Positions 58,888 to 63,100 of a stretch of DNA of 64,000 bases are shown here, piece after piece. Origin of the DNA: Candidatus Saccharimonadales bacterium. Lineage in GTDB: Bacteria > Patescibacteriota > Saccharimonadia > Saccharimonadales > EFPC-124. Below the pieces are notes generated by a model. It worked only from the letters and a program-made list of their open reading frames with translations. It made no database searches and had not been told where the DNA came from. Made by a program: the position numbers and the translations under genes. The first letter of the stretch is position 1, and every line of letters starts with the position of its first letter. Where the stretch lies: NCBI GenBank assembly GCA_050730875.1, contig JBOHNX010000001.1, positions 141,827 to 205,826 of the forward strand, given 5' to 3'.

Positions 58888-58964
58888 CTTATCCTTATTA
58901 TAGAGAAACCCCGCCCGGTTGCACATCGTTGTACAAACCGAGCGGGTGCTTAGTCCCCGAGGGG

Positions 58965-59102
58965 CTAGTTCGTGTTGTTGTTCTGGTTCGTTTCAGTCGA
59001 CGGTTTCTGACCCTGCATTAAATCGCGGGCTCGTGTGGCGGCTTGGGCTTCTTGGGTTGCTACCCTTTTGTCGGGTTTCCCCTGCCCGGTCGACTTTGCC
59101 AT
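58965..59102 (-). CDS. hypothetical hydrophilic 45-aa protein
   Basis: MAKSTGQGKPDKRVATQEAQAATRARDLMQGQKPSTETNQNNNTN. A GGAGGGGTGG RBS lies 5 nt upstream. Promoter-like TTGACT-17-TAACAT at about 59176-59204. Confidence 0.45.
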   Translation of the reverse strand: MAKSTGQGKPDKRVATQEAQAATRARDLMQGQKPSTETNQNNNTN

Positions 59103-59318
59103 TTTTCCACCCCTCCGGTAGGTTTGGGGACAGTGTTTTCTGCCGCGTTCGGTAGTGAACACGACAATTAACCATGTTACACATTATGTATGTATAAGTC
59201 AACCCTCCAACAGATATAAAGCGTCTTCCACAACATACGAATCTCGTACATTCTGAAAGACGGACAGGCGTGAACTGTAGTGCGAGGGGGGAAGCCAACG
59301 ACTTCCCCCCTCGCATCG

Positions 59319-59471
59319 CTACTCGTGCACCTTGCCGCAAGCATGACACTGCCACGGATCGGTGAGCTTGCCTCCGGTGAGGTAGTTGGTTGTACCGCAC
59401 TTGGAGCAAGTTGTCTTGATGGGATTGGTAGATCCCGTTGCTCTGTCCTTGCCGTAACGGCGATTCGTCAT
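59319..59471 (-). CDS. 50-aa zinc-ribbon protein (CxxC...CxxC)
   Basis: MTNRRYGKDRATGSTNPIKTTCSKCGTTNYLTGGKLTDPWQCHACGKVHE. Has a GGGGTGAG RBS. Begins 41 nt after tRNA-Pro. The stop is followed by a 13-bp G/C hairpin (59284-59296/59304-59316). Confidence 0.5.
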   Translation of the reverse strand: MTNRRYGKDRATGSTNPIKTTCSKCGTTNYLTGGKLTDPWQCHACGKVHE

Positions 59472-59512
59472 CGCCAAGTTACTCACCCCTTCGATCGAAT
59501 CTGACGACAACG

Positions 59513-59584
59513 TCGGGCTGGCCGGATTTGAACCGACACCCTTCCCATCCCAAACGGGAGGCTCCACCGTTGAGCTACAGCCCG
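59513..59584 (-). tRNA. tRNA-Pro (anticodon UGG), CCA not encoded
   Basis: CGGGCUG acceptor stem, GCUCAACGGUGGAGC D-arm, anticodon loop UUUGGGA and T-arm GUCGGUUCAAAUCCGGC. Confidence 0.9.
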
Positions 59585-59805
59585 GGTGAGGAGTTGGCGG
59601 ATGATCCTTTGGCGGGGCTCTCGGATGGGCCACCATTTAACGCCGCGGAATTGGTCACGTAAGCGCAGGACATCCTTTAGCGTTAAGGGTTCCGCGTAGC
59701 CAACTCCTCCAGTTACGGGTCGGCTGTGTTAGGCCGAGTACCGTAACTTCCAAAAAAGCTTGTTCACGCCTGTCAATGTGCGGACCTTCTTTGGAGAAAG
59801 CCAGC
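59585..59805 (-). ncRNA. ~220-nt structured leader co-transcribed with tRNA-Pro, unassigned
   Basis: Promoter TTGACA-16-TACAAT (59812-59839, - strand). An 11-bp long-range helix (59588-59598/59700-59710) abuts the tRNA 5' end. Further helices carry G.U pairs that are valid only on the - strand (CCAAAGAAG/CUUUUUUGG, UGGUGG/CCGCCA). Confidence 0.45.
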
Positions 59806-59895
59806 TCATTTATTGTACAACTATTAGCAAAGGTGTCAAGATTTGGCACCCCTGAACAAGCGTCATTGGTTGTTCAGGGGTGGAAGCATTATTGA

Positions 59896-60048
59896 TTACC
59901 CGTTCTTGTCGTGCTGTTTCTTGAGCCTGTCTCTCTTAGCTCTGAGCCTATCGGCCTCCTTTTTGGCGGCCTTGGGGTTCTTGGCTGCCGGACTTTCCAG
60001 GATTTTGATTTGCTGGTCAAGCGCAAAGAGCTTACGCAAAAAACCCAC
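59896..60048 (-). CDS. 50-aa basic helical protein (GTG start)
   Basis: A GAGAGGAG RBS lies 8 nt before the GTG. Sequence MGFLRKLFALDQQIKILESPAAKNPKAAKKEADRLRAKRDRLKKQHDKNG. A hairpin at 59847-59882 follows the stop. Confidence 0.45.
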   Translation of the reverse strand: MGFLRKLFALDQQIKILESPAAKNPKAAKKEADRLRAKRDRLKKQHDKNG

Positions 60049-60115
60049 AGCAAATACTCCTCTCGGACGAGTGAGCACGGATGTCGCTTTGCTTCATTCC
60101 TATGCTAAAAAGCGC

Positions 60116-63100
60116 TTATGCTTTTGTCAATTCCAAAAGTAAGTCTTTTTCGAATTGCTGGATGCCTTTAGAGTTGGGGTCGTACTGACTGGTGTCGGGG
60201 AAACTAAGCTGCTGGATGTGACGCCATACTGCTGTGAGTAGTTGCTTAAATTCGACTAACTCCTCGTCGGTAAATGTTAATTCGAGCTGATGCAGCTGCC
60301 CATCTGGGTCGGCTTCGATAAACTCCAGTACGCCACGCGTGACGGTGTAATTGCTAAAGTCGCGCGAGTTTTCGACCAACAGTTTATAAAGCATGAGCTG
60401 CTGTTTGTATTTGTGCAGTTTAATTTTTTCGAAGTCGGTGCCGGCGCGCCAACTGTTGAAGGCTTTGCCGGTTTTATAGTCGACTACTGTGATGGTTTTA
60501 TTGGTTTCGTCAATTTCCATTACGTCGATGGCACCGGTTAAGCGAACGCCATCGATAACCACGTTTTGGGCAGCAAAACTGCGCTCGGCTTTGTGCTCTG
60601 GCTTAAAGCGGTCGTAGCGGGCACCTAAGTATGTTTGCAAGACGTCGCTTCCTTTTTCGAACAAATACATGAAATCGCGTTCGCTTAGGCGAGCTTGCTG
60701 TAGCTGGACGTCGTAATCGTGTAAGACGTCTTCCATTGGGCGGCGTTCGCCCGTGGCACTTAAGTGCGTTTGTGCGCGGTGCAGCACGGCGTGGATGGCA
60801 TGGCCAAATACCTGATGCGGCGTCATGGCCTGTGGGAAGCGCAGCAGATTTTGCAGTAGGAAGGCTTGTGGCCCGCCGCGAGAAACATCGAGGAAGTTAT
60901 TTAAGTGTGTGGCGCTGAGGCAGTATTTTTCGAGTACTGGTTTTAGGAGGACTTCTTGTTTGACTTTCGGCAGGCTTAAGTGACGTTGCTGCCAGCCGGG
61001 CGTTAAATGCTCGATGTTTGCTGTGCCGTTTTGCTCGTGCAAGCTAGGCTGCAGGCCATGCAAAAATTCGGCCAGGATGCTTTCTTTGCCGTTTGAATCG
61101 TGCGTGTACGCGGTGAGGAGCAGATGGTGCTTGGCGCGCGTCATGGCTACAAAGAACAAGCGTAGGCTGTCATCGAAGCGCTGGCCGGCTGGTTCGATTG
61201 GCATGTTGTATGGGAAGCTCAGCTGCGAGCCTGGCTTGCGGGCGCGCCGTCCCCAAATTTCGTCCTGACAACTCAGTACAAATACGGTGTCGAATTCTAG
61301 TCCCTTGGCTTTGTGGGCGGTCATGAGCTCTACCCCGCTCACATCGTCTACATGCTGGGCGGTGTCAACGATTGGCGTGTTGGTCCGTTTGTGGAGTTCG
61401 ACAAAATCTACAAAGTCGCGTAGGTGCAGTGTTTCGCCCGGGTGGTAATCGGCCAGTGCTTGGCGGATGGTGCGCAGGTTGCTGAGTAGCGTGAGGTACT
61501 CGTTGGGGTTATCCTGCAAGCGCTTGCCGTTAAAGTAATGGGCTCGGTATGGCGAAATGAATTCTTCGGCCGGGCCGTGCTCGCGCGGGGGTTCGGCATC
61601 GACATCGGTTTCGTTGGGTAATTGCGATTCGTTGCTGCCGATCAAAATGTCCAACATGGTTTCCAGTGGTTCGTGCAGTGCCTGGTGAGAGGCTACAATT
61701 AGTAGCTCGGCAATTTGCCGCAATTTGCCGTCGGATTCAATCATGACCTCGAGCCACATGCGTCGCTGCTTGTAGGAGTCAATTGAAAGTTGCCAGAGGT
61801 CCGAAGTTTTGAGATTCCAGAATTCGTAGCTCAAAAGCTCTGGTAGTAATGCTTCTACTAGGTCGTAGCGTTGTTCACTCAGAAATACTATAACGCCCGC
61901 GAGCGTTATGAGTTCGCGGATATGGGGGCTTTCCAAGACGTTGCTGCGGCGTTCGTAATTAACTTTTAGGTTGGCGGCATGTAGGTAAGGCAGCAGCTCA
62001 ACCAGTTGTCTGTGGTGGCGAGCCAAGACTGCGATTTCGTTTGGTAGCGTGCCGGCTTTGATGCGCTCGGCAATTTGCGTGGCAATCCATTCGTATTGGG
62101 CTTCGGGGTCGGCAAATTGGTGGAGTTCTGGGTGACGGTCTACGAGCGTGTTGTGGGCGGTTAGCTCTTTGCTAATGTGCCCAAGTGTGGTTTCTAGCCG
62201 CTGCTCACCCTGCGTAATCACCTCACGGGCTCTTGAAAGAATTGGCTTGGTCGAGCGGTAATTGTCGGTCAGTGTGACAATGGTGGTGCCGCTGTAACGC
62301 ATGGTGAAGTCGAGGATGTTACTGAGCTCTGCACCTTGGAACGCGTAGATTGCTTGGTCGTCATCTCCCACTGCCAGTACATTTGGTCGGCCTTCGTTCA
62401 CCGGATTTTCGGCGAGCGCACTCAACAAGCGCAGCTGGGCGCCGTTGGTGTCTTGAAATTCGTCGACCATGAGGTACAGGTATTGTTCTTGCAGGTTAAA
62501 GCGAAGTTCGGGCGTGGTTTCGAGCGTATGGGCGACCATGCTGACCATGTCGTCGAAATCAAATAATTCGTGCTCGATCAATTTCTCGCGGTAGAGTTTG
62601 TAGATTTTAGCAAGCGCGCGCAGTTTTTTGGCGCGCGTACGGTCTTTAAAAACAAACTCGCCGGCGCGGTTTTTCTCTAACCAGCGATTGCGCCAGGTGG
62701 TTAGCGGTGTGGTTTTGCCTGAGGCCTCGGCGTCGCCTACTGCTTTGGTAAATTCGTGGCTGCAGAGTTCGCCCAATGGTTTTACAAACTCAAGTTCGAG
62801 TGGTTCCGACTTAAACTTTGCAAGCTGCTCGGCGATGCCGCTAAAGCGTGGGAAGTCTTTTTTGCTGAAGCGAGCAGCGAAGGCTTCGGCCAAGTGCGGT
62901 TCGGCGAAATCGCAAAATGCTTGGTTGTGCTCGATGACGGCCAGGAGTTCATCTGGCAGTAAACCGGCACGCTTGAGGTGAGAAATTGCCCTTTGAGTGT
63001 CTTTGAGGGCCGTGAATTCATCGTTCATGGTCTTGGCGAGTGGGTTGTTGTGCGGCAATGTGCGGAAGATTTCGCGCAAAATCTCGTAACTAGCTAGTTC

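Follow-up and report, generated by a model that had tools for sequence, protein, structure and literature searches.

What is a well-formed tRNA gene doing between a long folded leader and a gene for a 50-amino-acid zinc-ribbon protein? The question arises near one end of a 64,000-nucleotide stretch (the window, below) from the 0.95-Mb, 99%-complete genome of a Candidatus Saccharimonadales bacterium, where a first-pass annotation, made from the DNA letters alone, had described a consensus promoter, a structured leader, tRNA-Pro and two micro-proteins as one composite unit. Every feature it listed is present, at coordinates that hold apart from one-base offsets; absent from it were a helix joining the 5' and 3' ends of the transcript, the missing CCA of the tRNA, and the redundancy of that tRNA. 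Comparison with other loci indicates that it belongs to a rare Saccharibacteria cassette, not named before, of which six independent copies were found. We read this cassette as an end-paired zinc-ribbon mRNA whose tRNA-shaped module is likely a cis element cut by RNase P, and we hold that reading as a whole with about even confidence. The helix is well supported, and what we say of a role for the tRNA or for the private leader domain is inference.

The zinc-ribbon micro-gene, which the first-pass annotation had proposed from its CxxC...CxxC pattern, is a real conserved gene: an exhaustive phmmer search of 1.84 billion representatives returned five proteins of 45 to 50 amino acids (E from 7e-9 to 7e-4). 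The contigs of these homologues, together with two more genomes, provided five loci for comparison with the window. Common to the homologue contigs is a motif, (C)ATTGACAGG, upstream of the open reading frame (ORF), with its complement CCTGTC downstream of the stop codon. A repeat search extended these motifs into a long-range inverted repeat that brackets the ORF in all six independent loci: 13 nt with copies 486 nt apart in the window, 14 nt and 557 nt apart in L082, 15 nt and 511 nt apart in L093, 12 nt and 369 nt apart in L084, 16 nt (81% complementary) and 294 nt apart in L092, and 16 nt (94% complementary) and 362 nt apart in L086 and its near-twin L087. The same search found no such bracket around the high-GC homologues or around the copy in the family relative G001.

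The sequence of the repeat changes from locus to locus in a manner that preserves pairing. Its outer core, GACAGG/CCTGTC, is conserved, and its inner parts vary, always on both sides. An alignment of the helix (A3) contains 14 pairs and 82 cells, 100% of them paired, and 7 of the 14 pairs have changed on both sides, that is, by compensatory substitution. None of 500 shuffles reached the pairing of the real alignment, and sliding the partners by one to three columns left only 25 to 44% of cells paired. The helix is part of the minimum free energy (MFE) fold of all six putative transcripts, with pair probabilities of 0.81 to 0.998 in ViennaRNA, and the predicted 602-nt RNA of the window folds with a z score of -6.7. 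Within the genome the 13-mer of the helix occurs once. By these comparisons the locus appears to encode an end-paired bacterial mRNA of the hbs type, one in which the 5' untranslated region (UTR) pairs with the 3' UTR, and the support extends beyond a single sequence.

What flanks the helix is also consistent among loci. A 5' hairpin precedes its 5' strand by 3 to 6 nt in all six, promoter-like sites lie upstream of it in five of the six, and in three (the window, L092 and L086) another hairpin begins 0 to 1 nt past its 3' strand, followed by U6 in L092 and by a weakly U-rich tail in the window. In most loci the predicted fold places the start codon within a small local hairpin. Between the window's promoter, leader, tRNA and zinc-ribbon ORF, which begins 41 nt past the discriminator base of the tRNA, a consensus scan found no further promoter-like or terminator-like site, and the same order of elements recurs at L082 and L093, which supports reading them as one unit. 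To this extent the composite unit stands; the 45-amino-acid ORF once included in it lies behind the terminal hairpin and is separate. We also considered the CATTGACAGG motif as a second promoter and rejected it: no consistent -10 box lies 16 to 18 nt away across loci, and the motif is the 5' strand of the helix. In L093 a 9/12 promoter-like match overlaps that strand.

Taken together, these elements suggest a mechanism. A sigma-70-type promoter would drive an RNA of about 590 nt that carries a 5' hairpin, a long structured 5' UTR, the 50-amino-acid ORF and a terminator-like hairpin, and the 13-bp helix, lying between the 5' and terminal hairpins, would close the message end to end. Table 1 gives the coordinates.

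Table 1. Elements of the cassette and of the two units next to it, numbered from the first base of the window
Feature	Position	Strand	Basis
Sigma-70-type promoter, TTGACA-16-TACAAT	59812..59839	-	11/12 consensus matches; similar sites in the same relative place in 4 of 5 other loci
5' stem-loop at the putative transcript start, 5 nt before the long-range helix	59780..59805	-	MFE fold; equivalent in all six loci
Long-range helix, 5' strand (GACAGGCGUGAAC), holding the conserved core (U)UGACAGG	59762..59774	-	13 nt, 100% complementary, 486 nt apart; covariation; pair probability 0.998
Leader hairpin, 8 + 5 bp	59711..59748	-	MFE fold; no counterpart found in the other loci
122-nt leader domain with perfect 11-bp closing helix, separated from the tRNA by 3 nt (ACC)	59588..59709	-	z -3.64; genome-specific
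tRNA-Pro(UGG), second copy, no encoded CCA (A73 then CGUUG)	59512..59584	-	ARAGORN; Rfam, 60.7 bits
50-amino-acid zinc-ribbon gene; alternative TTG start at 59477; AUG inside a local hairpin	59319..59471	-	Homologues; AlphaFold (AF2) pLDDT 78.8
14-bp G/C hairpin directly past the stop codon	59281..59315	-	Inverted-repeat search; also in MFE fold
Long-range helix, 3' strand (GUUCACGCCUGUC)	59263..59275	-	Repeats, covariation, MFE fold, pair probability
Terminal 9 + 9-bp hairpin abutting the helix, then CUUUAUAU; probable terminator and transcript end	59222..59262	-	MFE fold; analogous hairpin with U6 tail in L092
Separate downstream unit: promoter-like TTGACT-17-TAACAT and orphan 45-amino-acid hydrophilic ORF	58965..59202	-	No homologue
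Separate upstream unit: TTGACA-17-TAGCAT, Lys-rich ORF of 50 to 60 amino acids, 13-bp hairpin	59847..60130	-	No homologue in relatives' loci

Repeats that covary in this way could also act as DNA, either as the borders of an invertible segment that turns the zinc-ribbon gene and tRNA on and off or as the ends of a small mobile cassette, an explanation we consider quite unlikely. Inverted repeats of 12 to 16 bp separated by 294 to 557 bp are, in size, within what is usual for invertons. Each of the 82 aligned cells is a Watson-Crick pair and none is G.U, which is expected of inverted repeats maintained at the DNA level and somewhat unusual for an RNA helix, and the conserved outer core with its variable inner part can be counted on the same side. 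So can the presence of the cassette at two genomic addresses, behind a helicase gene or behind pheT, and its patchy distribution (the family was found in 4 of 301 genomes of the order by six-frame profile searches, which gave only weak matches elsewhere in the phylum). Orientation, however, argues for RNA. The ORF points the same way as the upstream gene in all five loci where this can be read (the window, L082, L084, L092 and L093) and the same way as the promoter-like site wherever one is present; the L086/L087 pair likewise shows a single orientation, and no flipped copy was seen. The promoter and 5' hairpin lie outside the repeats yet keep their places, and a hairpin abutting the 3' repeat is sensible only for a transcript. 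An imperfect extension of the L092 repeat, read by hand, includes a G.U pair valid only on the sense strand. No recombinase gene was present in the neighborhood examined (no genome-wide search was made), and the repeat is unique in the genome. A transposon-like cassette in particular was rejected on the lack of target-site duplications and the position of the promoter outside the repeats.

Two side observations concern the RNA around the helix. L086 and L087 encode an identical zinc-ribbon protein, and the apical halves of their 5' hairpins (236-305 and 71-142, respectively) are wholly different; both hairpins still fold long, and an A-U pair in one is G.U in the other, a hint that the 5' hairpin matters as RNA. 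In the window and L082 (59440-59471 and 1795-1826, respectively) the first 26 coding bases, for MTNRRYGK, are identical at 23 positions in proteins that are only 57 to 60% identical. A GCCG-UUA-CGGC hairpin lies within these bases, and the beginning of the ORF may therefore be under constraint from RNA structure.

Closure of a message by its own ends has a precedent in Bacillus subtilis. Part of the account by Braun, Durand and Condon (2017; PMC5737220) describes a 14-bp pairing of the 5' UTR of the hbs mRNA with its 3' UTR that modulates cleavage of the leader by RNase Y. The long-range helix between UTRs is what hbs and the cassette share. They differ in that hbs encodes HU and the cassette an unrelated zinc ribbon, and in that the helix of the cassette, supported by its 7 compensatory pairs, is flanked by the 5' and terminal hairpins and in some copies encloses a tRNA. 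By analogy with hbs, closure would govern access by ribonucleases; it would perhaps govern access by ribosomes too, because the AUG sits in a local hairpin. To our knowledge, end-to-end pairing of bacterial mRNAs has been described in very few cases (among them hbs and icaR), mostly for single genes. Compensatory changes in six independent loci make the cassette a clean comparative example of such pairing, from the poorly studied Saccharibacteria.

A second comparison is with the hok family of type I toxin mRNAs studied by the Gerdes laboratory, which are about 400 to 600 nt long, encode a protein of about 50 amino acids, and fold back 5' to 3' with coupled covariations, RNA processing being the trigger for translation. 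End pairing, covariation, and the sizes of mRNA and protein are shared with the cassette. The product is not: Hok is a membrane peptide, whereas the cassette protein is hydrophilic with four cysteines. We rejected a hok-like type I toxin-antitoxin system on this basis, as a hydrophilic zinc ribbon is no hydrophobic membrane toxin. The protein matched no toxin in PADLOC, Pfam or NCBIfam, and on the opposite strand a consensus scan of the locus, which is weak evidence on this point, showed no promoter from which an antisense RNA could start.

If the helix defines the message, the tRNA gene inside it calls for a separate explanation. The genome has 44 tRNA genes, 43 of which encode the 3' CCA; the sole exception is the tRNA-Pro of the cassette. 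Profile searches of this genome found no match to PF01743, the head domain of the CCA-adding enzyme, or to RNase Z (TIGR02651), so the canonical maturation route for a CCA-less precursor seems to be missing. PF01743 was likewise missing from 57 of the 61 genomes sampled across the order, a side result by which most Saccharimonadales genomes searched lack a detectable CCA-adding enzyme, and from G491, the genome that holds L093. G001 does have a PF01743 gene (L098). A literature search combining the CCA-adding enzyme with Saccharibacteria or the candidate phyla radiation found nothing relevant. What role a well-formed tRNA gene plays in a cell seemingly unable to add its CCA end is therefore the broader question raised by this locus.

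The simplest answer would be that the gene is a working tRNA-Pro(UGG), horizontally acquired, with an unusually long pre-tRNA leader and a zinc-ribbon gene that is merely co-transcribed. A strong promoter does lie upstream. Prolyl-tRNA synthetase recognizes C1:G72, A73, G35 and G36, and the cassette tRNA, a perfect cloverleaf with anticodon UGG and a standard T loop, carries all of these. ARAGORN found no tRNA-Pro(CGG) in the genome, which could leave a place for a second proline tRNA. Against such a role, a canonical tRNA-Pro(UGG), quite different in sequence, is already encoded at C2:48105-48181; the CCA end that a functional tRNA-Pro needs is neither encoded, as it is in the 43 other genes, nor, by the profile searches, addable; and the homologous positions of L082 and L093 hold modules that could not decode. 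We rate a decoding role as very unlikely.

Those two modules are the main comparative evidence on the tRNA. L082 has, after the helix's 5' strand and before the ORF, an 82-nt tRNA (Rfam, 54.9 bits; C1:G72, A73) that lacks CCA and has a 15-nt anticodon loop, with acceptor and T arms kept. L093 has at the same relative place a 70-nt module consisting of an acceptor stem and a GGTTCGAATCC T arm, with no D arm and no CCA. No tRNA or tRNA-like module was found in L084, L086 or L092. CCA-less tRNA-shaped modules thus occur in three of the six cassettes, and two of the three are visibly unable to decode, one through its enlarged anticodon loop and the other for want of a D arm; only the window copy could decode on paper. 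We infer that the cassette tRNA does not decode and that the module is most likely cut by RNase P on its 5' side, which is plausible because RNase P RNA is present in the genome (235 bits; RNase III is present as well). Such a cut would detach the zinc-ribbon mRNA from the leader and, with it, from the clamp's 5' strand. That the tRNA shape has a role in cis, most simply as an RNase P site separating leader from message, is to us about as probable as its converse, and neutral decay is a less probable account of the same modules.

Decay would work as follows. The end-paired mRNA would be real, and the tRNA and 122-nt domain functionless: a permissive 5' UTR received a CCA-less tRNA, which could have come from a phage or the actinobacterial host and is now decaying, the window copy being the youngest. 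The graded states of the module, from intact (the window) through an expanded loop (L082) and a lost D arm (L093) to none (L084, L086 and L092), are what one would then see, and the tRNA is both redundant and not maturable by the usual route. The sole match among phages, which is also the closest outside the phylum, is to the tRNA-Pro of Streptomyces phage Alone3 (80% identity), and part of one report (PMC10673834) describes many actinobacterial tRNA genes as having no encoded CCA. A leader domain with no relative in any collection searched, and an insertion site that is a variable hotspot of small genes, would fit a chance arrival as well. On the other side, a tRNA-shaped module has been retained in the corresponding position in three lineages, and the helicases next to two of them are only about 48% identical. 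The decayed modules retain the acceptor and T arms, the parts that RNase P recognizes. The three are so different from one another that they may be separate captures, which would favor selection over chance, and the leader folds far better than its shuffles. We regard a hitch-hiking tRNA as possible but doubtful. Wider searches named no donor: no tRNA closer to it turned up in degenerate pattern scans of viral contigs and 185,000 species genomes, and in the BLAST searches of relatives and the phylum only the tRNA matched, at 82% or less.

Other points besides the lack of G.U pairs weigh against an end-paired mRNA with an RNase P-cut module. The transcription start, the 3' end and the RNase P cleavage are all predictions, and the U tail after the window's terminal hairpin is weak. 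The absences of PF01743 and TIGR02651 from this genome rest on an assembly of 6 contigs with some masked stretches. A flawless cloverleaf with the bacterial proline identity features would be expected of a working gene or of a very recent arrival. The module is absent from three of six loci and is therefore not essential to the cassette, and the series from intact through loop-expanded and armless to absent is matched about equally well by a hitch-hiking tRNA in neutral decay. Outside the helix the leaders cannot be aligned with one another, which leaves the 122-nt domain of the window without comparative support. The tRNA-shaped module may be a relic.

A stronger form of the RNase P reading holds that the tRNA gene has been exapted solely as an RNase P signal, that the cut opens the clamp and thereby licenses or limits synthesis of the zinc-ribbon protein, and that this happened in a bacterium that lost the CCA-adding enzyme and RNase Z. 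We offer it tentatively and consider it unlikely in this full form. No bacterial case is known to us in which an entire tRNA gene serves as an RNase P signal inside a 5' UTR. In Escherichia coli, tyrT-tyrV-tpr and thrU-tyrU-glyT-thrT-tufB place tRNAs upstream of a protein gene in one transcript from which RNase P separates them, and tpr is itself a micro-gene. The tRNAs of those operons are essential decoders, whereas the cassette tRNA is redundant, lacks CCA and belongs to a genome in which the maturation enzymes were not found, and two sister loci hold degenerate tRNAs. RNase P also cuts tRNA-like structures in transcripts that are not tRNAs, such as MALAT1/mascRNA, MEN-beta and the t-elements of plant mitochondria (PMC4919922). 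These share with the cassette a non-decoding, tRNA-shaped module in a longer transcript and an end made by RNase P, which for the cassette is a prediction; they are eukaryotic or organellar and also use RNase Z, whereas the cassette is bacterial. If RNase P does use the module, the cassette would offer a bacterial instance of a tRNA converted into a processing element, a counterpart of MALAT1-mascRNA and the plant t-elements.

The junction at which the putative cut would fall has a feature of its own. At 59585-59598 the leader clamp's 3' strand runs into ACC, directly after which the tRNA begins, so that after cleavage the leader would end in ...CCAACUCCUC-ACC, resembling an acceptor stem and CCA end minus the last A. 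No tRNA of the genome carries a CCAACUCCUC-ACC tail.

The leader itself had been put forward in the first-pass annotation as a missing housekeeping RNA or as a processing or regulatory element. Its structure is as described: the 228-nt leader has an MFE of -84.8 kcal/mol (z -4.49, equalled by none of 200 shuffles), G.U pairs make up 6 of the 69 MFE pairs, the opposite strand folds worse (z -2.95), and the 11-bp helix is perfect, at 59588-59598/59699-59709 rather than 59700-59710. The genome gives some opening for a housekeeping role, namely that the leader is a signal recognition particle (SRP) RNA or 6S RNA that escapes Rfam and is freed from its precursor by RNase P. RNase P RNA and transfer-messenger RNA were found elsewhere in the genome, and SRP RNA (RF00169, RF01854) and 6S RNA (RF00013) were not detected in it even at E<=10; the leader is strongly folded and ends at a putative RNase P site. 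On the leader, however, neither an SRP nor a 6S model comes up even at E<=10, and a cmscan of 58900-60200 at that threshold returned the tRNA alone. The small SRP RNA model RF00169 matched none of 41 genomes searched (this one and 40 related Saccharibacteria), so its absence is uninformative about this locus; a divergent SRP RNA would have to be common to all 41, and the leader was found in none of the relatives searched. In relatives the syntenic gap is without the cassette, and the fold is multi-branched, neither a 6S rod nor an SRP hairpin. We rejected SRP RNA, 6S RNA and every other Rfam family for the leader, and a housekeeping RNA hidden from these models is so improbable that we set it aside. 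'Processing or regulatory element' stays a fair description.

Nor does the leader recur elsewhere. BLAST searches of 18 family genomes, of 40 relatives and of about 400 phylum members gave no match to it, where a housekeeping RNA should be shared at least by the relatives, and the cassette as a whole was found in none of the 18 family genomes. A 21-base pattern from the leader had no exact match in the genome or viral collections, and exact and degenerate DNA patterns of leader and tRNA matched no genome contig or viral contig. Leader and cassette are single copy in the genome; a plasmid search was empty, and a phage search gave only the Alone3 tRNA. A global alignment of the window cassette with L082 was tried and set aside, as the non-coding parts do not align. 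The leaders of other loci carry private clamped hairpins of their own and no counterpart of the 122-nt domain, which is a lineage-specific part of the 5' UTR and not a housekeeping RNA.

Within the genome, the nearest likeness is to a set of tRNA-linked modules, present in six copies, that are folded domains of about 100 to 130 nt with a closing stem of about 11 bp beside tRNA genes. The cassette leader domain is likewise a fold closed by about 11 bp that adjoins a tRNA. The modules, however, lie behind their tRNA, are clamped by copies of that tRNA's 3' end and contain a GCCAGTGGC core, whereas the leader domain lies in front, and its clamp, GAGGAGUUGGC/GCCAACUCCUC, is unrelated to the tail of tRNA-Pro. 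No copy of the tRNA-Pro tail was found within 400 nt downstream of the cassette tRNA, and membership was rejected when an nhmmer profile of the six copies had no hit at 59585-59850.

The protein is more readily described than placed. A profile search added one homologue to those from phmmer, and in their alignment G13, T15, N16, C22, C25, W40, C42 and C45 are invariant. The family pattern is 45 to 54 amino acids with G-x-T-N and CxxC-x14-16-W-x-CxxC, which the window protein fits. It belongs to no Pfam, NCBIfam or PHROG family at cut-off, and a word-indexed protein search and a scan of viral-contig proteins found nothing. The AlphaFold model (predicted local distance difference test, pLDDT, as in Table 1) is a plain zinc ribbon; Foldseek against the Protein Data Bank returned only generic zinc ribbons (LysW, S27e), none significant. 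Some homologues come from high-GC DNA (64 to 68% GC), probably from Actinobacteria. One of these, L083 (ENA contig_101138, 64% GC), lies among SSB, HTH_17 and unknown small genes in what looks like a prophage or integrative element. A homologue in what looks like a mobile element of a probably actinobacterial contig suggests possible transfer of the family between Actinobacteria and the Saccharibacteria that live on them.

In the window the cassette lies between genes for an AddA-like helicase-nuclease and the tRNA-dihydrouridine synthase Dus. L082 is behind the same helicase gene (proteins 48% identical), L084, L092 and L093 are directly behind pheT, and the bracket-less homologue of G001 is between Dus and atpC; these differing sites suggest that the gene moves among a few addresses. 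The helicase and Dus genes could both be placed in 10 relative loci, and there they are neighbors across gaps of 337 to 777 nt, compared with 1231 nt here, and the cassette is missing from all 10 gaps. No tRNA stands upstream of Dus in any of 43 Dus loci from relatives and metagenomes.

The window's two other small ORFs in this gap are separate orphan units. The 14-bp hairpin past the zinc-ribbon stop codon, which had been put at 13 bp, has no U tail, as claimed. Beyond the terminal hairpin, TTGACT-17-TAACAT is present at 59202-59174 (-) with 9/12 matches, a strength within shuffle expectation (3 sites of the 9/12 type found in 3 kb, 1.7 expected), and the 45-amino-acid ORF is where it was described, at 58965-59102 (-) with GGAGGGGTGG upstream. 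That ORF has no homologue in 5.8 billion clusters other than the window's own copy, and none in relatives' loci. On the other side of the cassette, a Lys/Arg-rich ORF of 50 to 60 amino acids at 59896-60078 (-), also without a homologue in relatives' loci, comes with a GAGAGGAG ribosome-binding site, its own promoter-like site at 60130-60102 and, at 59847-59882, a hairpin of 13 bp. The gaps of relatives likewise hold assorted small ORFs, which makes the helicase-Dus gap (58927-60115 in the window; L015 to L057 in relatives) a variable hotspot of small genes. Unrelated Cys-rich small ORFs occupy the gaps of L022 and L018, and those of L055, L034, L036, L017 and L019 have in common an ORF of about 70 amino acids (beginning MPEREPMNPE or MSE...) with its own promoter.

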